Below the pieces are notes generated by a model. It made no database searches, was not told the origin of the DNA, and saw nothing but the letters and a program-made list of their open reading frames with translations. DNA of 64,000 nt from Gemmatimonadales bacterium (GTDB lineage: Bacteria; Gemmatimonadota; Gemmatimonadetes; Gemmatimonadales; GWC2-71-9): assembly GCA_038209515.1 (NCBI GenBank), contig JBBQXQ010000004.1, forward strand, positions 1,078 to 65,077. The letters are read 5' to 3'. This document shows, piece by piece, positions 2,677 through 63,029 of this stretch. Position 1 is the first letter of the stretch, and every line of letters begins with the position of its first letter. A program made the translations under genes and the position numbers.

Positions 2677-3570
2677 GTGACAATCAAGGCACGTAGCAAG
2701 CGTCGCCCGGTGCGACCGGCGCAGATCGCTCGTGCAATCGATGAGGGTCGCGAGAGTCTCGATCTGTACCTGGACGAGATCAGCCGGGTTCCCCTCCTCA
2801 ACCGTGAGGAGGAGATGGAACTCGCCCGTAAGGCGTTCAAGGGCAATGTGACGGCCCAGGAAAGGCTGGCTCGCCACAATGTGCGCTTTGTGGTCTCCGT
2901 GGCCAAGAAGTTCCAGAATCGTGGAGTACCCCTGGTGGACCTGATCGGCGAGGGGAACCTCGGCCTCATGACCGCGGCCCGCAAGTTCGATCCCGATCGC
3001 GGCGTCAAGTTCATTTCCTATGCAGTCTGGTGGATCCGGCAGGCGGTGCAGGCCGCTATCGCGCGGCATGGCCGTCCGGTCCGGGTACCGCTCAATCGTA
3101 CGGCGGATCTCAGCCGGCTTGGTCGGACCACGACCCTGCTGAAGGATCGGCTGGGCCGGATGCCAACCACCGAGGAGCTGGCCCGGGCAACCGGACTGAC
3201 CGTCGAGGCGGTGCGTTCCCTCAGCGCCCTCAATTCCGAGGCGGTTCGGCTCGACCATCCCACCAGGGACGGCGAAGGCAACGAGCGGATCGAACGCTTC
3301 ACCAGCGGCGAGCAGGAAAGCACCGACATGACGACCATGGCCAACAGCCAGACGCGGGATATCGAGGCGGCCCTCGCCGCCCTCCCGCCGCGGGACGCTA
3401 AGGTGCTTCGGCTCTACTTTGGGCTGGACGACGGCAACAGCCGCACGCTCGAGGAAATCGGCCGCATGATGGGGGTTACCCGTGAGCGGATCCGTCAGCT
3501 GCGGGACCGCGCCCTCCTCCGCCTGCGCGAAGGCGAGACCGGAGACCGGCTGAAGGATCTGGTGGCCTAA
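2677..3570 (+). CDS. RNA polymerase sigma factor, sigma-70 family (RpoD/SigA-like, regions 1.2-4, no long region 1.1)
   Basis: Region 2 (NVRFVVSVAKKFQNRGVPLVDLIGEGNLGLMTAARKFDPDRGVKFISYAVWWIRQAV), region 3 and region 4 (TLEEIGRMMGVTRERIRQLRDRAL) are all present. The ORF is open from GTG 2629. I prefer GTG 2677 because it is preceded by GGAG 8 nt upstream. Confidence 0.9.
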   Translation: MTIKARSKRRPVRPAQIARAIDEGRESLDLYLDEISRVPLLNREEEMELARKAFKGNVTAQERLARHNVRFVVSVAKKFQNRGVPLVDLIGEGNLGLMTAARKFDPDRGVKFISYAVWWIRQAVQAAIARHGRPVRVPLNRTADLSRLGRTTTLLKDRLGRMPTTEELARATGLTVEAVRSLSALNSEAVRLDHPTRDGEGNERIERFTSGEQESTDMTTMANSQTRDIEAALAALPPRDAKVLRLYFGLDDGNSRTLEEIGRMMGVTRERIRQLRDRALLRLREGETGDRLKDLVA

Positions 3571-47457: not shown

Positions 47458-52122
<4,665 letters not shown>

Positions 52123-52208: not shown

Positions 52209-52355
52209 CTGGGGTCGCGCGAACGCGCTAACTCACCCGGGCGCTCCCCTGGAGCGGACGAGATTGAGATTAATGACGACGGTGAGCGGCGCGTTCATGG
52301 CCCGCATTATTATACATCGCGATGAATGTGTCAAGGCGGAGGACAAACGGGCTCC

Positions 52356-52384
52356 TTGACATGTCCCCGGGATTGTCGTAGCCT
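52356..52384 (+). promoter_or_regulatory. putative promoter of the leu/ilv super-operon (back-to-back with a candidate gltB promoter at 52306-52334 on the minus strand)
   Basis: Plus strand: TTGACA (52356-52361), 17 nt, TAGCCT (52379-52384). Minus strand: TTGACA (52334-52329), 17 nt, AATAAT (52311-52306). Confidence 0.45.
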
Positions 52385-52428
52385 CCAGATCCAATGATGC
52401 ATAAGTTTTCAAACTGAGCTCGGGCACA

Positions 52429-52530
52429 ATGCAGACCAGTCTCCTCCTAGTCGTCGTCGTCCTTCTCGGCCTCCTTACCGTCCTTATCGGTGAGCGAGAG
52501 GTCCGCGGCGTGCTACGACGAGCAACATGA
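52429..52530 (+). CDS. BCAA leader peptide MQTSLLLVVVVLLGLLTVLIGEREVRGVLRRAT
   Basis: 33 codons, not in the ORF track. 14 of codons 5-20 are Leu, Val or Ile. It lies between the promoter and the terminator and directly upstream of leuA. Confidence 0.7.
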   Translation: MQTSLLLVVVVLLGLLTVLIGEREVRGVLRRAT

Positions 52531-52555
52531 GACATTGAGTCTCCCTGATTGCCCC

Positions 52556-52590
52556 CAGCGCCGCGGACGAATCCGCGGCGCTTTTTGTTT
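52556..52590 (+). terminator. attenuator terminator of the leu/ilv leader
   Basis: GCGCCGCGGA cgaa TCCGCGGCGC TTTTTGTTT. The 5' arm plus the next base, CGCCGCGGAC (52559-52568), is also perfectly complementary to GTCCGCGGCG at 52501-52510 inside the leader ORF, which gives an antiterminator. Confidence 0.75.
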
Positions 52591-52614
52591 GCTCCTCAAC
52601 CTTTAAGGGTACGT

Positions 52615-54171
52615 ATGGCCAGCCAGGAAGTCCTGATCTTCGACACTACTCTCCGCGACGGCGAGCAGGCCCCCGGCAACAGCCTGTCGCCGGAGGAGAA
52701 GCTCCGGCTGGCGCGTCAGCTCGATGCCCTGAGAGTCGACATCATCGAGGCCGGCTTCCCGGCAGCCTCCGAGGATGACTTCCGCAGCGTCCGGGAGATC
52801 GCCGCCGAGATCCGTCGTCCAGTCATCGCGGCACTCGCCCGCTGTCACGAGCGCGACATCGACCTGGCCGGCGAGGCCCTGGGCGGGGCCGAGCGCGGCC
52901 GAATCCATGTGTTCGTCTCCACCTCCGACCTGCACATCCGCGAGAAGCTGCGCACCACGCGGGCGGCGGTCCTCGAGATGACCCGCACCGCAGTGCGCCG
53001 GGCCAGGCAGTATACCGATGACGTGGAGTTCTCCGCGGAGGACGCCAGCCGAACCGACCCGGACTACCTCTGTCAGGTGATCGAGGCCGCAATCGAGGCG
53101 GGCGCCACCACGATCAACTTGCCCGACACGGTGGGGTACGCCACACCCGCTGAGTACGCCGAGATGTTCCGGAGCGTGCGCGAGCGCGTGCCGGGTGTGG
53201 ATGGGGTCGTCCTCAGCGCCCATTGCCACGACGATCTCGGTCTGGCTGTCGCGAACACGCTGGCGGCCATCGCGGCCGGGGCTACGCAGGTGGAGTGTAC
53301 GGTCAACGGCATAGGAGAGCGGGCCGGCAACGCCGCTTTGGAGGAGATCGTGATGGCGAGCCGGGTCAGGGGACCGGCGCTCGCATTCCAGTGCCAGGTG
53401 GAGTCGCGCGAGATCCATCGTACCAGCCAACTGCTCTCCCATCTCACCGGCGTCTTCCCCCAGCCGAACAAAGCCATCGTGGGCCGCAATGCATTCGCCC
53501 ATGAAGCGGGCATTCACCAGCATGGGATGCTCCAGAACGGCCTCACCTACGAGATCATCCAGCCGGAGATGGTGGGGATTCCGCGCTCGACCCTGGTCCT
53601 CGGCAAGCATTCCGGGCGGTACGCCCTGGAGCGGCGGTACCAGGAGCTGGGATATCAGCTGGGTGAGGACGAGCTGGCCGAGGTGTACCAGGGGTTCACC
53701 GCGTTGGCAGACCGGAAGCGGGAGATCCTGGACGAGGATCTGCTGGCCCTCCTGCACGAGAGCTTCCACGATGCGCCGGAGGAGTTCCAGATGACCCACC
53801 TCCGCGTGGTCTGCGGCAGCGTGACGGCGACAGCCGAGGTTCGGATGACCGGCTTGTGGGCCGGCGAGCGCTCAGCCCGCGGCACCGGCGATGGTCCTAT
53901 CGCCGCGGCGTTCACCGCGGTGAGTGAGATCCTTGGCCGTCACGTCGAGGTCTTGAGTCTCACCCTCCGATCGGTCACGCCGGGACGGGACAGTGTCGGG
54001 CAGGTCTTTCTCCAGGCCAAGATCGATGGGAAGTCGCTCTCCGGGCACAGCGCTTCTACTGATATCGTGGAGGCGAGTGCCCGAGCGCTGGTGCACGCCC
54101 TCAACAAGGCCCGGCATGCGGAGAAGCTGGAGGCCAGTTCGTTGAATTCGGTGTACCTGTGGGGTGTGTAA
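52615..54171 (+). CDS. leuA: 2-isopropylmalate synthase
   Basis: VLIFDTTLRDGEQAPG, HCHDDLGLAVANTLAA, and a LeuA-dimer C-terminal regulatory domain. ATG 52615. Confidence 0.95.
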   Translation: MASQEVLIFDTTLRDGEQAPGNSLSPEEKLRLARQLDALRVDIIEAGFPAASEDDFRSVREIAAEIRRPVIAALARCHERDIDLAGEALGGAERGRIHVFVSTSDLHIREKLRTTRAAVLEMTRTAVRRARQYTDDVEFSAEDASRTDPDYLCQVIEAAIEAGATTINLPDTVGYATPAEYAEMFRSVRERVPGVDGVVLSAHCHDDLGLAVANTLAAIAAGATQVECTVNGIGERAGNAALEEIVMASRVRGPALAFQCQVESREIHRTSQLLSHLTGVFPQPNKAIVGRNAFAHEAGIHQHGMLQNGLTYEIIQPEMVGIPRSTLVLGKHSGRYALERRYQELGYQLGEDELAEVYQGFTALADRKREILDEDLLALLHESFHDAPEEFQMTHLRVVCGSVTATAEVRMTGLWAGERSARGTGDGPIAAAFTAVSEILGRHVEVLSLTLRSVTPGRDSVGQVFLQAKIDGKSLSGHSASTDIVEASARALVHALNKARHAEKLEASSLNSVYLWGV

Positions 54172-54174
54172 ACA

Positions 54175-55878
54175 ATGACTGAAACCCTGACCGGCTCTCA
54201 AATCCTCTGCCGCGCGCTGCTGGAGCAGGGAGTCGACGTCCTGTTCGGGTATCCCGGCGGCGCGATCATGCCGTTCTATCACGCCTTGCCCGAGTATCCC
54301 GGCCTGCGCCACGTGCTGGTGCGGCACGAGCAGGCCGCCGCCCACGCAGCCGACGGGTACGCCAGGGCGAGCGGACGCGCCGGTGTGTGTGTCGCGACCT
54401 CGGGTCCCGGGGCGACGAACCTGGTCACTGGCCTTGCCACCGCCCATATGGACAACGCGCCCGTGGTTGCGATTACCGGACAAGTCGCTCGGGCCATGAT
54501 GGGCCGGGACGCGTTCCAGGAGACCGACATCATCGGGATTACCCAGCCGATCACCAAGCACAACCGGCTGGTGGAGGACGTCGAGGAGCTGGAGGACGCC
54601 GTGGCAGAGGCCTTCTACGTCGCACAGGAAGGCCGGCCGGGCCCGGTGCTGATCGATATTCCGAAGGACGTGCAGAATCAGAAGGCGGAGTGGAAAGGCG
54701 GTCAGGCGGTCAGGCGGTCAGGCGGTCACTTGGAATCGACCGACCGACCGCCCGTCCGCCCGCCGGGCCTCGAAGACGCCACTCGTCTGATCGCCGAGGC
54801 CCAGCGTCCCCTCATTATGGCGGGTCACGGTGTCCTGCTCTCGAATGCCTACGCCGAGCTTCGTGCTCTGGCCGAGCGCACCGGGATTCCGGTGATCACC
54901 ACGCTGCTTGGGATCAGCGGATTCCCGGAGTCGCATCCACTCCACCTGGGTATGCCGGGGATGCACGGCGAGGTCCACGTCAATCGCGCCATCCAGCAGG
55001 CCGATCTCATCATCGGACTCGGCCTCCGATTCGACGACCGGGTGACTGGCAACCTCGCGGGCTTCGCGCGCGGGGCCAAGGTCATTCACGTGGACCTCGA
55101 TCCGTCCGAAATCGGCAAGAATGTGCCAGTCGCAATCGGGATCGTGGGCGACGTGCGGGCGGTGTTATGCTCGCTGCTGGATATGGTAGCGCCGCGACAT
55201 TGCGACGCGTGGCGGGAGGAAATCGCCGGGTTCGTCCGGCCTCGGCAGGAGGCCTTTCGGGGAGGACTGACTCCAGAGACTATCCTCGATGCCATCGACG
55301 GGGCTACCTCGGGCCGCTGCTCCATCGTCTCGGATGTGGGCCAGCATCAGATGTGGGTCGCCAAGCTCTTTCGTTATCAGCGTCCCAACAGCCACATCAC
55401 CTCCGGCGGTCTCGGCACGATGGGGTTCGCCGTACCGGCCGCGATGGGCGTGGCCCTGGCACGGCCGGATGAACCGGTGTGGGCGATCTCGGGCGACGGC
55501 GGTTTTCAGATGAACATGCAGGAGATGGCGACGATGGTGCAGGAAGGGATCCCGGTGAAGATGGCGATCTTCAACAACGGATACCTTGGCATGGTGCGGC
55601 AGTGGCAGCAGTTCTTCCATGGTAAGCGCTACTCGGCGACCCCGATCTGGAGTCCCGACTATGTGCGGCTGGCTGAGGCCTATGGCATTGCCGGCTGGCG
55701 GGTGGAGTCGGCGGATCAGGCCCAATCCGTGGTCCGCGAGGCGACGGCCCAACCCGGTCCGGCCCTGGTGGAGTTCGTCATCGAGCAGGAGGCGAACGTC
55801 TACCCCATGATTCCGCCGGGTGGCTCTCTCTCGGAGCCGATCGAGGGCGAACCTGTGCCGCCACTGGTGCCCGCATGA
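54175..55878 (+). CDS. ilvB: acetolactate synthase large subunit (biosynthetic type)
   Basis: ThDP enzyme pattern (GYPGGAIMPFYHAL, GPGATNLVTG, GLGTMGFAVPAAMG, GDGGFQMN). Confidence 0.95.
   Translation: MTETLTGSQILCRALLEQGVDVLFGYPGGAIMPFYHALPEYPGLRHVLVRHEQAAAHAADGYARASGRAGVCVATSGPGATNLVTGLATAHMDNAPVVAITGQVARAMMGRDAFQETDIIGITQPITKHNRLVEDVEELEDAVAEAFYVAQEGRPGPVLIDIPKDVQNQKAEWKGGQAVRRSGGHLESTDRPPVRPPGLEDATRLIAEAQRPLIMAGHGVLLSNAYAELRALAERTGIPVITTLLGISGFPESHPLHLGMPGMHGEVHVNRAIQQADLIIGLGLRFDDRVTGNLAGFARGAKVIHVDLDPSEIGKNVPVAIGIVGDVRAVLCSLLDMVAPRHCDAWREEIAGFVRPRQEAFRGGLTPETILDAIDGATSGRCSIVSDVGQHQMWVAKLFRYQRPNSHITSGGLGTMGFAVPAAMGVALARPDEPVWAISGDGGFQMNMQEMATMVQEGIPVKMAIFNNGYLGMVRQWQQFFHGKRYSATPIWSPDYVRLAEAYGIAGWRVESADQAQSVVREATAQPGPALVEFVIEQEANVYPMIPPGGSLSEPIEGEPVPPLVPA
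54684..54764. repeat. inverted 8-mer arrays inside ilvB: (GGCGGTCA)4 at 54697-54728, 9-nt spacer, degenerate CGACCGCC-type array at 54738-54764
   Basis: Direct reading. Translated in frame as GGQAVRRSGGHLESTDRPPVRPPG, in the linker between the Pyr domain and the central domain. Confidence 0.9.
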
Positions 55879-56381
55879 CGGTGGCGCGCGCCGTGTCGGT
55901 GCTGCTGGAGGATCGTTGGATCACGCTGAACCGCGCGGTCGGGCTCATCCGGCGGCGCAACCTCCCGGTGCACAGTCTGGCCGTAGGGCCAACTGCCACG
56001 CCGGGACTCTCGAGGCTCACGATAATGATTCACTCGGACACAGCGACGGCCGACCGGGCCGTGCAGCATCTGCAGAAGGTGGTTGGCGTCCGTGCGGCGG
56101 TGGCATTTCCGGCCGGGGAAGGAGTGGTCCGTGAGCTCGCCCTGGTCAAGGTTCGTGCGCCGCACGAGCGATATGGTGAGCTGCTCGACGTGGTCCAGCT
56201 GTACAATGCTTCGGTGGTGGACGACTCCGCCGACGCGATGATCGTGGAGCTCAGCGGCTCCGAGGCCTTCGTGCTCTCGTGCATCCGGGCCCTCGAGCGC
56301 TTCGGCGTGGTCGAGGTGGCCCGCAGCGGCACGATCGCGCTGGGCTCAGGCAATGACATTCAATCCGGGACGTTACCATGA
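55875..56381 (+). CDS. ilvN: acetolactate synthase small (regulatory) subunit
   Basis: ACT-domain pattern ([32 protein letters not shown]). ATGA overlap. Confidence 0.88.
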
Positions 56382-57481
56382 CCACGCCAGTGCGGGTGTA
56401 CTACGATGCCGACGCCGACCAGAGCCGCCTGGACGGCCGCACCTTTGCCATCATCGGGTATGGCAGCCAGGGACACGCCCACGCCTTGAACCTCCGGGCA
56501 AGCGGAGCAGACGTCATCGTGGGACTGCGGCGCGGCGGAGGATCATGGGAACGTGCCCGTGCCGCGGGTCTCGACGTCCAGACGGTGGCCGAAGCAGCGG
56601 AGGCCGCCGACGTGATCATGATGCTGGTGCCGGACCAGGACGCCCGCGCCATCTATGAAGGCGGCGTCGTGCAGGGCCTTCGACCGGGCAAGACGCTGAT
56701 GTTCGCTCACGGGTTCAATGTGCACTATGGCGAGATCGTGCCACCCGATGGGGTCGATGTCTCGATGGTCGCGCCCAAGTCTCCCGGTCATCTGGTGCGG
56801 AGTGAGTTCGAAGCCGGCCGGGGGGTGCCTGGTCTGGTCGCCGTGCATCAGGACGCAAGCGGGGAAGCTTTGGCCAACGCACTGGCATACGCCGCCGGGA
56901 TCGGTTGCACCCGGGCCGGGGTCATCGAGACCTCCTTTCGGGAGGAAACAGAGACCGACCTGTTCGGCGAGCAAGCGGTGCTCTGCGGCGGCGTCACCGC
57001 ACTGGTCAAGGCCGGTTTCGAGACCCTCACCGCTGCGGGCTACCGGCCGGAGATGGCCTACTTCGAATGTCTCCACGAGCTCAAGCTCATCGTGGACCTC
57101 ATGTACCGGGGTGGCCTCCAGTTCATGCGCTACTCGATCAGCGATACGGCGGAGTACGGCGATTACACCCGCGGCCCCCGGGTGATTACAGAGGAAACGC
57201 GGGCGGAGATGCGCCGGATTCTCGATGCCATCCAGGACGGCTCCTTCGCCCAGGAGTGGCTGGCAGAGAACCGAGCCGGGCGGGCCAACTTCGACCGGCT
57301 TCGGAAGGCCGACCACGACCACGAGATCGAGCGGGTCGGGGCCGAGCTCCGGGCCATGATGCCGTGGTCCGAGGAAGGGAAGCGGGGTGGTAAGACGGAG
57401 AGGACGGAGAAGGCGGAGAAGCCGGAGAAGGCGGTGAAGTCGAAACGGCCTCACCGTCCCGCGCACCCGCTGCCTCGCTGA
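56378..57481 (+). CDS. ilvC: ketol-acid reductoisomerase (class I) with Lys/Glu-rich C-terminal tail
   Basis: [16 protein letters not shown] and the KARI C-domain. The tail [31 protein letters not shown] lies beyond the usual end. Confidence 0.95.
57395..57439. repeat. 5 x 9-bp tandem array (GCGGAGAAG-type) encoding [15 protein letters not shown]
   Basis: Units are acggagagg, acggagaag, gcggagaag, ccggagaag, gcggtgaag. Confidence 0.9.
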
Positions 57482-58941
57482 TGCCGCGCACCCTATTCGA
57501 GAAGGTCTGGGACGCCCACGTCGTCAGCCAGGTACCAGGGGGACCTGCGCTGCTCTACGTGGATTTACATCTGGTGCATGAGGTCACGTCGCCCCAGGCG
57601 TTCGAGGGACTCCGGCTGGCCGGGCGCCGAGTGCGGCGGCCGGAGCGCACCGTCGCCACAGTCGATCACAACGTGTCCACCGGTGACCGAAGCCTCCCCA
57701 TAGCCGACGAGATCTCGGCTCGGCAGCTCGATGCACTTCGCCGCAACGCGGGTGAATTCGGAATCGAGCTGCTGGACCTCGACTCACCGGAGCAGGGCAT
57801 CGTTCACGTCATTGGGCCGGAACTGGGTCTCACCCAGCCCGGGATGACCATTGTCTGTGGCGACTCCCATACCTCGACCCATGGCGCGTTCGGCGCCCTC
57901 GCCTTTGGCATCGGCACCAGCGAGGTGGAGCACGTGTTGGCCACTCAGTGTGTGATGCAGAGTCTTCCCAAGACCATGGAGGTCCAGTTCACCGGCCGGG
58001 CTCAGCCCGGAATCTCGGCTAAGGACCTGATCCTCGCCCTGATCCGCCGGATCGGCACCGCGGGCGGCGCCGGGCACGTGATCGAGTACACCGGGGAGGC
58101 AATCAGGGCGCTGTCGATGGAAGGCCGCATGACGGTCTGCAACATGTCCATCGAGGCAGGAGCACGGGCCGGGATGGTGGCGCCGGACGACACCACCGTC
58201 GCGTATCTGGCCGGCAGGACTCGCGCACCCAAGGGTGACGACTGGAACCGGGCTGTCGCCGGCTGGAGCGCGTTGCGGAGCGATCCCGGCGCCCGGTATG
58301 ACCGGCAGATCGTGCTGGACGCGAGCGCGATCGAGCCCCAGGTCACCTGGGGCACCAACCCCGCCATGACCGCGAATATCTCGGAGCGCGTGCCCGATCC
58401 ATCTCTCGCAACCTCAGTGGCGGAGCGTGAATCGTATCGGCGCGCACTCGACTATATGGGCCTTCGCCCCGGTGTGCCGCTCGAGGGCTTGCCGGTCGAT
58501 CGGGTATTCCTCGGCTCCTGCACCAACGCACGGCTCGAGGATCTGCGTGAAGCTGCCAGAGTAGCACAGGGCCGCCGAGTAGCGCGTGGAGTGCGTGCGA
58601 TGGTCGTGCCTGGGTCGCAGCAGGTGAAGGCCGCTGCGGAGCACGAAGGATTAGACCGCATCTTCATTGATGCCGGTTTCGAATGGCGGAATCCCGGCTG
58701 CTCCATGTGCCTCGGCATGAACGAGGATGTGCTCGGCGCGGACGAGCGCTGCGCATCGACCTCGAATCGCAACTTCGAGGGTCGGCAGGGAAGAGGAGGC
58801 CGCACGCACCTGGTGAGTCCGGCCATGGCGGCGGCCGCGGCGATTGCCGGATGCCTCACCGATGTGCGCGCGCTTATGCAGAGCGGGCGGGAGTCCCATG
58901 CATCCGCTGAACGCCCGTATGCAGTGTATTATGGAGCTTGA
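57481..58941 (+). CDS. leuC: 3-isopropylmalate dehydratase large subunit
   Basis: Aconitase-family motifs ([34 protein letters not shown]). Confidence 0.95.
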
Positions 58942-59043
58942 GCATTGTAGCGTAAGTGCAAGTATTGACGTCTGTTGTGGATTCGACGTGAGAAGCTTTG
59001 TAGAACTGCTCCCGCTTCTGCGCGCATAAAGTTCAGGGGACGT

Positions 59044-59649
59044 ATGCAGCCATTCATTTCCCACCGGGGACGCGTCGCCGCCCTGCGACGAGTCAACGTC
59101 GACACCGATCAGATCATTCCGAAGCAGCTCCTCAAGCGCATCGAGCGCTCTGGCTTCGGACCGTTTCTGTTCTATGACTGGCGCTACCGTCCCGATGGCC
59201 GCGAGAACCCGGACTTCGAGCTCAACCGGAGCGAGTCACGCGGAGCGACGGTGCTGCTCGCGGGAGCCAACTTCGGGTGCGGCTCCTCGCGCGAGCATGC
59301 GCCGTGGGCGCTCGCCGATTTCGGTTTCCGGGCAATCATCGCGCCGTCATTCGCCGACATCTTCTACGCCAACTGCTGTCAGAACGGATTGTTGCCGGTG
59401 GCTCTGCCAGGAGCCGTAGTGGACGATCTATTCGAGCGCTGTGCCGGATCGCAGGGACTCGAGCTCACGATCGACCTGGAGGCGCAATCGGTGCGAGATG
59501 ATCCCGAACTGAATGTCCCATTCGAGATCGACTCCTATCGGCGCGAGATGCTGATGCGTGGGCTGGATGAGATCGGTCGGACGCTACTGGACGAATCCAG
59601 GATCACCGCGTTCGAGCGTCGGCGCACGCTGGCAGCGGGCGCACCGTGA
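59044..59649 (+). CDS. leuD: 3-isopropylmalate dehydratase small subunit
   Basis: [32 protein letters not shown] 59044. Confidence 0.93.
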
Positions 59650-60788
59650 AACAGTTCAGGGTCGCGGTGCTTCCGGGAGATGGTATCGGCCTGGAGGTGA
59701 CCGCCGAGGCCGTTCGGGTTCTCGCCGCCGTGGCCGACCTCTGCGGCTTTCGCATGGCGACTCAGGAGTACCCGATCGGTGCCGTAGCTGTCCGGCAGCT
59801 CGGCGAGGCCCTGCCGGCCCGAACCCGGGACGCCGTCCTCGAGGCGGATGCCGTGCTCCTGGGAGCGGTCGGGGATCCGGCACTGGCCGATGCGACTGGG
59901 AACCGGCGCCCCGAGGCTGGGCTTCTTGCGCTCCGGAAGCTGCTCGGGGCGTATGCGAATCTCCGGCCCGTCTCGGTACACCCCGCCCTCCGACACGCTT
60001 CTCCTCTCAGGCCCGAGCGGCTGGACAAAGTCGATCTGCTGATCGTGCGGGAGCTCACCGGAGGGCTATACTATGGTGAGCCTCGGGGGCGAGACGAGCA
60101 GAGTGCGGTGAACACACTCCGGTACAGCGTGGCGGAGATCGAGCGGGTTGCCCGAGTGGCCTTTCAGGCCGCCCGAGAGCGGCGATGCCTGGTAACGTCG
60201 GTGGACAAGGCGAACGTGCTCGAGGTGTCTCAGCTCTGGCGCGACACAGTGAGCCGGGTCGGCGGCGACTACCCGGACGTGCGGCTGGAGCACCTGTACG
60301 TGGACTTCGCGGCGATGAGGTTGATCGCCAATCCGGCCTCCTTCGACGTGCTGCTCACCGAAAATCTCTTCGGCGATATCCTTAGCGACGAAGCGGCGGT
60401 CCTGACCGGCTCACTCGGGCTGCTGCCGTCGGCCTCCATCGGCGATGGTCCCGGTCTATTCGAGCCGGTGCATGGCTCGGCGCCGGATATTGCAGGGCGC
60501 GGCGTCGCCAATCCCATCGGGGCAATCGCGTCCGCGGCAATGCTGCTGCGTCACTCGCTGGAGCTGCGTGAGGCGGCGGCGCTGGTCGAGCAGGCGATTG
60601 CGGACGTCATCGGCGCTGGGGGACGCACCCCGGACATCGCTCTACCGGGAGAGCCCACGCTGACGACCCGCGAGATGGGTGCGGAGATAGCTCAACGAGT
60701 GACTTCTCGAACCCTTTCCCACCAGAGCAGCGCCAGCGCACTCCAGGCAGTACCCAGCAGCAGTCCGCCTACCACATCGCTGGGGTAG
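59646..60788 (+). CDS. leuB: 3-isopropylmalate dehydrogenase
   Basis: [31 protein letters not shown]. The C-terminal ~30 aa run 97 nt into the convergent PAP2 gene. Confidence 0.93.
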
Positions 60789-61315
60789 TGCACTCCGAGG
60801 TACACTCGCGAGAATCCTATACCGAGGGCAAAAAGAGCAGCCAGCACCAGGGCGGCTCGCCGAAGCGCCGGTGATGGCCACGGCGCCGCCCACGCGATGA
60901 TGCCGAGTCCAAAGATGATGGGCGCCAGCATGCTGTGGCCGGATGGGTAGGAGAACCAGCCCGCTCCGTGCATGAGGCGGGGAATGACGTGGGGACGAGG
61001 ACGATGCACCGCCAGCTTTGCCAGCCCAGAGAGCGCCCAGCCGCTGAGCGCAGCAGCCGCGTACCACCACGCCTCGACTTTCCGCTTCCTGAGGACAAGC
61101 CCCAGGATGAGCAGCAGCGCGAGCGGTATCTCGATCAATCCGGAGCCCGCGACGCTCAGCAGCTTCATCCACCATGTGAGCCAGGGCTCACGTTTGGCGG
61201 CCAGGGCCAGCATGAGCGTCCGGTCCCAGGTGTCCGCCACGCCGGCAAGGACGGCGGCCGTCAACCCGAAGAAGAGGACCAGGCAGATGATGGCGAGCAC
61301 CCGGTAGCCGACCAC
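60692..61315 (-). CDS. PAP2 family phosphatase (membrane)
   Basis: [14 protein letters not shown] and [12 protein letters not shown] motifs. Confidence 0.85.
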
Positions 61316-61352
61316 CTCACGGGAGCGCTGCGGCCCGAGCGCTGCAGGCGGC

Positions 61353-63029
61353 CTAGAGATCGGTCACCGCGCCAATGCTCGCGCTCGAGACCTGCTTGGC
61401 ATACTTGTACAGCACGCCGGCCGTGTACCGCGGCTTCGGCGGGGTCCACGCCTTGCGTCGTCTCGCCAGCTCCGGCTCGGAGACCTCGAGCTCGAGCAGC
61501 CGGCGTTCGGCATCGATGGTCACTCGATCGCCCTCCGCGACCAGCGCGATGGTTCCTCCGACCGCCGCCTCCGGGGCCACGTGCCCCACCACCATGCCGT
61601 AGGTCCCACCCGAGAACCTGCCGTCGGTGATGAGACCGACCGAGTCGCCGAGTCCGGCTCCGATGATGGCCGAGGTGGGCGCGAGCATCTCCCGCATTCC
61701 CGGCCCGCCGCGGGGGCCCTCATAGCGAATCACCAGCACATCGCCGGCTCGAATGTTCCCTGCCAGAATCGCCTCGAGGCAGCTCTCCTCCGAGTCAAAG
61801 ACTCTGGCGGGCCCGCTGATGCGCGACTTTTTTATCCCCGTGATCTTCGCGACTGCGCCTTCGGTCGCGAGGTTTCCCCGCATGATTGCGAGATGGCCCT
61901 GGGGATAGAGCGGACGGCCCCACGGGCGGATGACTTCCTGATCGGCGCGCGGTTCCGGAGGCACGTTGGCCAGCGATTCGGCGATCGTTTCGCCCGTAAT
62001 CGTCAGCGCATCTCCGTGGAGAACACCGTGGGTCAACAGGATCTTCATGACTTGCGGTATTCCGCCGGCGCGGTGGAGATCGGTCGCCACAAAGCGGCCC
62101 GATGGCTTCAAATCGCACAGCACCGGCACCCGGGCGCGAATGGTCTCGAAGTCGTCGAGCGAGAGCGGGACGCCGGCCGCACGGGCGATCGCCAGCAGAT
62201 GCAGCACGGCGTTGGTTGACCCGCCGATCGCCATTACAACCGCGATCCCATTCTCGAACGCTGGACGAGTGAGAATCTGCCGGGGCCGGAGCCGCCGCCG
62301 AATCGCGTCGACCAGTACATTGCCCGAATTCGCAGCACTCTCCGCCTTCTCCCCATCCTCCGCCGCCATGGTGGACGAGAAGGGAAGGCTCATTCCCATG
62401 GCCTCGAACACCGAGGACATGGTGTTGGCGGTGAACATCCCGCCACACGATCCCTTGCCCGGGCATGCCCGGCGCTCGACCTCGAGCAGCTCGCGGTCGT
62501 CAATCGTGCCGGCGCTGTGTTGTCCTACCGCCTCGAACGCGCTTACCACGGTGAGGTCTCGGCCGGCATAGTGCCCTGGCTTGATGGTCCCCCCATAGAC
62601 GAAAATCGCCGGTATATCCATCCGCGCGATGGCGATCATGGCGCCGGGCATGTTCTTGTCGCACCCGCCGACCGCAAGTACCCCGTCCATACTCTGGGCT
62701 CCGCAGGCCGTCTCGATCGAATCGGCGATGACCTCGCGGGAGACGAGCGAATATTTCATTCCCTCGGTGCCCATTGAGATCCCGTCACTGACTGTGATCG
62801 TCCCAAACATCTGCGGCATGGCTCCCGCAGCCCGCACCGCCGCTTCCGCGCGACGGGCCAGCTCGTCGAGTCCAGCATTGCAGGGGGTGATGGTGCTGTG
62901 GGCGTTGGCGATGCCGACGATGGGCTTCCCGAAGTCCCCATCCCCGAAGCCGACGGCGCGGAGCATCGCTCGATTGGGCGCGCGTTGGACGCCCTCGGTG
63001 ATTGCGCTGCTTTTGAGTTTGTTGGGCAT
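61353..63029 (-). CDS. ilvD: dihydroxy-acid dehydratase
   Basis: 558 aa with [20 protein letters not shown] and the IlvD/Edd pattern. Confidence 0.96.

Follow-up and report, generated by a model that had tools for sequence, protein, structure and literature searches.

The window analysed here, 64,000 nucleotides (nt) of contig JBBQXQ010000004.1, belongs to an uncultured soil Gemmatimonadales bacterium and contains a short leader region in front of the seven-gene branched-chain amino acid (BCAA) operon leuA-ilvBNC-leuCDB. The leader very likely works as a classical ribosome-mediated transcription attenuator, which would sense mainly leucine and valine. A leader-peptide transcription attenuator for this operon was the core of the original prediction, and it was strongly supported by comparative evidence. 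The evidence was comparative and computational throughout (in silico). The leader was composed of the parts of a classical attenuator, namely a leader open reading frame (ORF), an intrinsic terminator, an antiterminator that excludes the terminator and is located just 3' of the regulatory codons, and a protector hairpin with the regulatory codons in its 5' strand. These parts were observed directly in the sequences, together with their alternative pairings, conservation, covariation, and linkage to leuA.

The leader ORF extended from the ATG at 52429 to the TGA stop codon at 52528–52530 and encoded the peptide MQTSLLLVVVVLLGLLTVLIGEREVRGVLRRAT. Codons 5–20 (LLLVVVVLLGLLTVLI) formed the regulatory run, in which 14 of the 16 codons specified Leu, Val, or Ile, exactly as had been noted for a 33-codon ORF at this position. 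When 605,870 windows of 16 residues from approximately 1,700 likely proteins of this genome were examined, eight contained at least 13 Leu, Val, or Ile residues and one contained 14, and the related leaders typically contained 12–14 per 16-residue window. In a genome-wide scan, the leader was the only Leu/Val/Ile-rich short ORF with a terminator after it. These three amino acids account for 23.5% of the codons genome-wide, and codons 3–20 of 55 non-redundant leaders consisted of 45% Leu, 20% Val, and 6.5% Ile. Alanine made up 3% of the leader codons, compared with 11% genome-wide. The composition of the leaders differs from that of an ordinary membrane helix or hydrophobic segment of this proteome. 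Codon choice also differed from that of the genome: CTT made up 34% of the Leu codons (5.9% genome-wide), GTC 85% of the Val codons (38%), and the share of ATT was 42% (14%). This skew may favour pairing with the G-rich 3' strand, allow particular isoacceptors to be sensed, or do both. The predicted leader for Leu, Val, and Ile was borne out for Leu and Val, but hardly for Ile, which has a single codon in the run of the window. The element reads as essentially a Leu/Val sensor, and a leader dominated by these two amino acids fits the gene content of the operon, which contains three shared genes and four that are specific to Leu, but none specific to Ile.

Five independent sequence signs point to translation of the leader ORF: the conserved ATG, the T at codon position 2, the in-frame indels, the retention of Leu and Val across genera, and a leaderless layout in some relatives. 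In the alignment of related leaders, the ATG was at least 90% conserved. The near-invariant T residues at positions 19, 28, 31, 34, 37, 40, 49, 52, and 61 of the first sequence were all located at codon position 2, which was T in 14 of the 16 codons, and the mean conservation of codon positions 1, 2, and 3 was 0.69, 0.82, and 0.73, respectively. Indels within the Leu/Val run had lengths of 3, 6, 9, or 15 nt, so that the frame was preserved, and genera with unrelated nucleotide sequence still had a Leu/Val-rich ORF of 28–34 codons. In at least five species (loci L010 of genome G005, L050, L051, L061, and L070), the −10 box TAGCCT was located just 6–8 nt from the leader ATG, and the peptide of those loci would be translated from a leaderless mRNA. 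The leader of the window has a 5' untranslated region (5'UTR) of about 37 nt, with transcription expected to start near 52391. Three leader peptides were compared with Pfam and NCBIfam, and no family was matched. A 100-residue ORF on the antisense strand (52233–52535) was rejected as an Arg-rich artefact which overlaps unconserved sequence.

A terminator had been predicted between the ORF and leuA and was confirmed as an 11-bp stem with a T-run. The stem (52557–52582) contained nine G-C pairs and was followed by TTTTTGTTT, which ended at 52590 and left 24 nt to the leuA ATG (52615). The hairpin alone folded at −22.5 kcal/mol, and the terminator was present in every related leader with a conserved T-run after the hairpin. 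Its two strands are designated regions 3 and 4, and the 5' strand of the antiterminator is designated region 2. Within region 2, GTCCGCGGCG at 52501–52510 was the exact complement of CGCCGCGGAC at 52559–52568, which verified the claimed complementarity to the 5' arm of the terminator. Three copies of this 10-mer were found on both strands of the 64-kb window, of which two form this pair and where about 1.06 were expected. The probability that the right strand carries a copy in the ~130 nt preceding the terminator was roughly 1e-3. The 1:2 protector hairpin, an anti-antiterminator, had Leu/Val codons in its 5' strand and region 2 within its 3' strand, and its apex helix, P1, was formed by residues 52474–52480 paired with 52488–52494. 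Regions 2 and 3 were separated by a spacer stem-loop present in both states, and its inner hairpin (52529–52543) included GA, the last two bases of the TGA stop codon. An Rfam scan with E values up to 10 gave no match to a T-box, riboswitch, or leader family. The only matches were weak, below the gathering score, to terminator-like small RNA models, and they aligned on the terminator hairpin.

The leader RNA (52390–52600) folded at −79.4 kcal/mol with a z value of −4.4 against dinucleotide shuffles. When the naked RNA of 52429–52556 was folded, a long hairpin (52451–52521) was obtained at −44.0 kcal/mol, in which codons 8–18 paired with region 2 and its flanks. When the 5' strand was removed as a mimic of the stalled ribosome and the transcript extended to the terminator loop, an 11-bp antiterminator was formed around the spacer stem-loop at −32.8 kcal/mol. 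In the complete leader with the 5' strand held, the antiterminator state had an energy of −34.0 kcal/mol and the terminator state −36.0 kcal/mol. The two states are nearly equal in energy, and therefore the order of folding can decide between them.

Conservation of the switch was examined for 70 sequences in a model-based alignment that had not been fitted to the antiterminator; an earlier model alignment containing 27 opposite-strand palindrome matches was discarded. The terminator was 92.6% paired. The antiterminator was 92.9% paired, compared with 31–47% when the partner columns were slid, and a MAFFT alignment agreed. P1 was 80% paired, and 10 of its 12 pairs were changed on both sides, while the stop-codon hairpin inside the spacer was paired in 84% of cells with all five pairs changed on both sides. 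Double-changed cells numbered 99, compared with 35 ± 5 in shuffles. One region-3 base, mostly G, was A in G022, L059, and L062, and in precisely these three sequences both the region-2 and the region-4 partners were U, not C. No sequence in the alignments examined paired the region-3 A with C. The core of region 2, CGCGGCG, has the frame (GTC) CGC GGC G within the genus and GT C GCG GCG in other genera, and these different frames indicate a constraint on the RNA, not on the peptide. In genome G011, a 1-nt indel rewrote the peptide tail and the RNA was retained. P1 occurred in at least four stem versions in different genera, CUGCUUACC/GGUGAGC.AG, CCUCGUGCUCGUCC/GGACGUUCACGGGG, GCUGCUGCUGGG/CCCAGCAGGAG, and CUGCUGAGC/GCUCAGGAG. 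The same architecture was built from unrelated helix sequences in locus L068 (Gemmatimonadota, 59% LeuA identity), where region 2, GGAGGGCUCUCGC, was complementary to a different terminator arm, GCGAGCGGGCCCUCUCC. RNAalifold recovered only the terminator core from the MAFFT alignment because the diverged genera are out of register in it.

The closest LeuA loci all came from metagenome-assembled genomes (MAGs) of uncultured Gemmatimonadales or Gemmatimonadota. In 20 of the 21 genomes of the same genus, the promoter boxes, ORF, region 2, stop hairpin, and terminator aligned 5' of leuA. The exception was G001 (locus L006), where just 174 nt of contig precede leuA; they contained no leader, look coding, and resemble the final part of a different gene that runs into the start of leuA. 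A Leu/Val-rich ORF of 28–34 codons and a terminator were also present in each of the 37 other Gemmatimonadales loci that had 250 nt or more of upstream sequence, including loci in which LeuA was only 69–79% identical and the peptides were unrelated in detail (for example, MMLLVDLLLLTLLLGLITQQEVRGARDGAA and MTAFALLLVLVLLLSLTLLRRGTVARAETRI). When a covariance model built from 53 leaders was searched in 151 sampled genomes of the family, a strong match was found in 45, one per genome, and all 20 fetched loci were directly 5' of leuA. A full-length LeuA with at least 56% identity was encoded in 45 of the 151 genomes, 44 of which carried the element adjoining leuA, and 19 genomes without a strong model match had no such leuA. 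Conservation of the small ORF in relatives had been put forward as a check on the original prediction, and the ORF, antiterminator, and terminator were indeed kept by leuA in about 25 genera. Across these genomes, the element consistently accompanies the leuA-first operon. In two other families of the order, a LeuA-like gene was found without the leader. The gene of those families follows an apparent ilvC or, at one locus, possibly ilvN, as read by eye from the translation. In 102 of the 151 sampled family genomes, many of which are more than 95% complete, no LeuA match was obtained at E <= 1e-100. The lack of a match in approximately two thirds of the sampled genomes may reflect leucine auxotrophy or a very different enzyme.

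In the proposed mechanism, transcription would start from the conserved TTGACA-17-TAGCCT promoter and produce a leader RNA of ~200 nt encoding the 33-residue peptide. At low levels of charged tRNA-Leu or tRNA-Val, a ribosome would stall on the run, from 52441 to about 52476, and hold the 5' strand of the protector, leaving region 2 (52501–52511) free. Free region 2 would capture the 5' arm of the terminator (52558–52568) upon its emergence, the resulting antiterminator would block the terminator, and RNA polymerase would continue into leuA. When Leu and Val are plentiful, the ribosome would proceed over region 2 into the stop-containing spacer hairpin during the synthesis of regions 3 and 4, the terminator (52557–52582 with the T-run) would form, and transcription would stop near 52590. 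If the leader is not translated, the 1:2 hairpin (52451–52521) would sequester region 2 and termination would result. Several factors probably discriminate between the plentiful and the stalled states: the ribosome would pass over codons 24–33 while the polymerase makes regions 3 and 4, would unfold the spacer hairpin that otherwise draws regions 2 and 3 close to each other, and would stand between these regions as a steric block, and the 1:2 hairpin may re-form behind it. From the features of the sequence we infer translation of the ORF, ribosome stalling, the timing of ribosome and polymerase, and a response to amino acids.

Several observations weigh against this mechanism. The leader ATG has no Shine–Dalgarno sequence upstream, which is no objection because most genes of the operon likewise have none. 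The CCGCGG core of both helices was invariant and gave no covariation signal. When complete leaders were folded at equilibrium, the terminator was kept in most sequences even under a stalled-ribosome mask; with the terminator dominant at equilibrium, the switch must be kinetic. Textbook attenuators also keep the terminator in equilibrium folds. The comparison of folds with and without a mask, suggested in the original prediction, revealed the alternative pairings, but the equilibrium masks did not switch the states in most sequences. Equilibrium masked folds cannot discriminate the states and were replaced by transcripts cut before region 4 and by forced-state energies. In the cut transcripts, region 3 paired with region 2 in 94% of folds with the stalled ribosome, in 94% with the stop-codon footprint, and in 72% with naked RNA; footprint masking did not separate the ribosome at the stop codon from the stalled ribosome. 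The 3' end of region 2 was 17–18 nt upstream of the stop codon in most genera and 9–10 nt in a subgroup with a three-codon deletion. Region 2 was located at the trailing edge of the terminating ribosome, and a footprint of ~30 nt on the stop codon left it free. The earlier claim that a ribosome at the stop codon masks 52501–52510 was not upheld, since the footprint leaves region 2 accessible and the antiterminator was formed in 94% of those folds. Finally, the look-alike ilvB and leuA leaders of Streptomyces coelicolor departed from classical behaviour upon mutation of their regulatory codons (PMC1262725), and this result is the main reason to regard classical attenuation as very likely and not as near-certain.

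It is conceivable, though improbable, that the leader represents a distinct sub-type of attenuator, in which discrimination would be achieved by the conserved stop-containing spacer hairpin at a fixed distance of 17–18 nt from region 2. The leader peptide would often be translated from a leaderless mRNA as well. The terminating ribosome would then unfold the spacer and separate regions 2 and 3 sterically without covering region 2. If true, this sub-type and the Phe leader of the same genome described below would point to a Gemmatimonadota-wide, Shine–Dalgarno-independent attenuation regulon.

Also unlikely is a switch in which the RNA structures are real and are operated by a factor other than the ribosome, for example a small molecule, a tRNA, or a protein that binds RNA, with the Leu/Val ORF as a by-product of a pyrimidine-rich strand pairing with the G-rich region 2. 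The leader codons end predominantly in C or U (CTC, CTT; GTC at 85%), as the complement of GGUGAGC.AGGGG requires, and the similar S. coelicolor leaders were unresponsive to codon mutation (PMC1262725). However, no Rfam family came near its gathering score and neither a T-box nor a riboswitch was matched. Pairing alone leaves the conserved ATG, the in-frame stop codon, the frame-preserving indels, and the T at codon position 2 instead of 3 unexplained, as it does the ATG at the inferred transcription start in several species, and the different stems of other genera still spell Leu and Val.

Control mainly by translation or mRNA stability, for example by coupling of leuA to the leader ORF or by re-initiation, with the hairpin as a stabiliser and not a terminator, is very unlikely. 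The leuA start is preceded by only the weak ribosome-binding sequence AAGGG, and many genes here have none. However, the leader stop codon is separated from the leuA ATG by 84 nt, a distance too great for coupling, a conserved T-run typical of intrinsic terminators comes after the hairpin in every genome, and the leuA start region is outside both alternative structures. Very unlikely, too, is a small, hydrophobic, functional peptide of the membrane that has a terminator of its own, in which case the operon would depend on a different promoter or on constitutive partial read-through: the peptide resembles a single transmembrane helix with a short charged tail, and the tail GE.GVRGVP.RAT is kept within the genus, but the tail is wholly different in other genera, where the RNA motif is retained in another frame, the G011 indel changes the tail and keeps the RNA, the composition is poor in Ala and beyond any ordinary hydrophobic segment of the proteome, the T-run is only 24 nt from leuA with no promoter-like site downstream, the element is found only beside leuA, and no protein family is matched.

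Classical attenuation, the preferred reading, was compared with known systems. The leader peptides of ilvGMEDA (ilvL), ilvBN (ivbL), and leu (leuL) in Escherichia coli and Salmonella are established attenuators (PMC5794164, PMC1183508). The Gemmatimonadales leader shares with them a short ORF with a Leu/Val/Ile run, a 1:2 protector, a 2:3 antiterminator, and a 3:4 terminator; read-through by stalling is established for the enterobacterial leaders and would operate here by analogy. It differs from them in sequence, with no similarity and no Rfam match at E values up to 10, and in scope, since one leader alone serves leuA, ilvBNC, and leuCDB. In addition, region 2 is located inside the ORF, 17–18 nt before the stop codon, a conserved spacer hairpin contains the stop codon, and the leader has no Shine–Dalgarno sequence and has a leaderless mRNA layout in some relatives.

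In Staphylococcus aureus, one BCAA-rich leader peptide controls the whole super-operon ilvDBNCleuABCDilvA, and predicted similar leaders are cited for Lactococcus, Corynebacterium, and Streptococcus (PMC5794164); similar elements were reported for Listeria (PMC5864092). A single BCAA-rich leader peptide and terminator before a whole ilv-leu super-operon are common to S. aureus and the Gemmatimonadales, whereas the phylum and gene order differ. The S. aureus peptide has 26 residues and is based on Ile and Leu, whereas Leu and Val dominate here. The proposed antiterminator of S. aureus pairs with the poly-U tail, whereas that of the Gemmatimonadales takes the 5' arm of the terminator, and the S. 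aureus operon has CodY as a second layer of control. In Actinobacteria, leaders of ilvB and a 'LEU element' of leuA were described (PMC1262725), as was an upstream ORF of ilvBNC in Corynebacterium (PMC10272879, PMC11857589). These actinobacterial leaders are the closest parallels among high-GC organisms. As in the Gemmatimonadales, the hosts have high GC content and the Leu/Val/Ile-rich upstream ORFs overlap or precede terminators. However, leuA and ilvBNC of Actinobacteria have separate elements, and the leuA element is a pseudoknot involving the Shine–Dalgarno box, whereas the Gemmatimonadales element has the full set of classical parts.

A 2010 survey regarded leader peptides as demonstrated in Proteobacteria and Actinobacteria alone, to which it added Firmicutes (PMC2965389). 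No paper tying Gemmatimonadetes to attenuators or leader peptides was found in the literature. A survey of further phyla was reportedly made by Lopatovskaya et al. in 2010. The novelty claimed at the outset applies to the lineage, Gemmatimonadota, but not to a single leader controlling an ilv-leu super-operon, which was already known from S. aureus. The element represents a new and well-supported sequence family within a known class of regulator, and such regulators do not seem to have been reported before from this phylum. Gemmatimonadota is a widespread and almost uncultured soil phylum, and no cultured member of the genus is known to us. As a mechanism, attenuation of this type is textbook and the surprise is modest; the element would extend classical leader-peptide attenuation to Gemmatimonadota and account for the control of the leuA-first seven-gene BCAA operon. 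It also yields a covariance model and about 70 sequences for annotation. The leaderless and 5'UTR-bearing variants form a natural set of one attenuator, useful for studies of translation–transcription coupling.

Outside the window, contig C57 of the same genome (positions 3077–3160, locus L148) contained a short ORF with a leaderless layout, MVLARSYRFFFTIPGRARCPSGVGRVH, located 6 nt downstream of a TTGACA-17-TAGCTT promoter. The ORF was followed by a strong terminator and then by a gene read by eye as pheA (prephenate dehydratase) with a DAHP-synthase-like C-terminal part. The promoter and a (Y/W)FFF or WFFYF run were conserved in nine other genomes of the genus. L148 is a candidate Phe attenuator, and this conserved, leaderless, Phe-rich leader with a terminator before a pheA-like gene suggests that the lineage uses the attenuation device elsewhere. 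Short ORFs with Trp runs were also returned by the genome scan, and the two inspected lie within coding regions. Leu-rich short ORFs (…HSLGLLLPGLLLR, …LGLALLLALRAG, …YLLLSLLLVLLLP) were observed upstream of leuA in MAGs of Phycisphaerae (L098, L101) and Gammaproteobacteria (L096, L107). In L098 and L101, a strong terminator-like hairpin was located between the ORF and leuA; in L096 and L107, the hairpin found was just a weak one, located around the ORF start. These four loci are possible Leu attenuators in other phyla, and the device probably occurs more widely than published reports indicate.

Table 1. Positions of the leader elements and operon genes in the window.
Feature	Position	Strand	Basis
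−35 box TTGACA of the leader promoter	52356..52361	+	CTTGACA at least 90% conserved in 21 same-genus upstream regions
−10 box TAGCCT, 17-nt spacer from the −35 box	52379..52384	+	TAG(C/G)CT at least 90% conserved
Putative leader-peptide ORF, 33 codons and TGA	52429..52530	+	Sequence reading, conserved ATG, period-3 signal
Regulatory run, codons 5–20	52441..52488	+	8 Leu, 5 Val, and 1 Ile in 16 codons
1:2 protector (anti-antiterminator) hairpin	52451..52521	+	Minimum-energy folds
Region 2, antiterminator 5' strand, pairs with 52558–52568	52501..52511	+	Fold and 92.9% pairing in 70 sequences
Spacer stem-loop between regions 2 and 3	52520..52553	+	Fold; present in both states
Intrinsic terminator: region 3 (52557–52567), loop CGAA, region 4 (52572–52582), T-run	52557..52590	+	Terminator-like site scan
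leuA (2-isopropylmalate synthase), first structural gene	52615..54171	+	NCBIfam NF002086, 712 bits
ilvB, ilvN, ilvC	54175..57481	+	NCBIfam TIGR00118, NF008864, NF004017
leuC, leuD (start ~59044), leuB	57481..60788	+	NCBIfam NF004016, NF002458, TIGR00169

The operon downstream of the leader was assigned with NCBIfam as leuA, ilvB, ilvN, ilvC, leuC, leuD, and leuB. The genes were joined by 3-nt gaps or overlaps, except for a 102-nt spacer of lower GC content between leuC and leuD. A scan of 52600–61400 returned no promoter-like site and no same-strand terminator-like site in this interval. The operon is flanked by gltB, upstream and divergent, and by ilvD, downstream and convergent. On the minus strand, the gltB leader contained a promoter-like TTGACA-17-AATAAT (52334 to 52306) and a terminator-like hairpin with a T-run (52210 to 52183), followed by the gltB ATG at 52122. 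This leader (52334–52173) may be a second attenuator, as its layout suggests.

The start context GGG(T/G)ACGTATG was common to leuA (52609–52617) and leuD (59038–59046), and CGTATG was kept at leuA starts across the genus. In the leuC–leuD spacer, GCGCATAAAGTT was located at 59022–59033, 10 nt 5' of the leuD ATG. This sequence was rejected as a part of the mechanism; before leuD, it was found only in this genome and its closest relative, and it is rare genome-wide. Upstream of the leader ORF, CGCATAAAGTT formed the loop of a 5'UTR hairpin in six loci from several other genera, L022 (G015), L023 (G017), L052, L053, L054, and L060, and the loop reads GCGCATAAAGTT in four of them. The sequence CATAAAGT had six copies in the genome, compared with about 20 expected.

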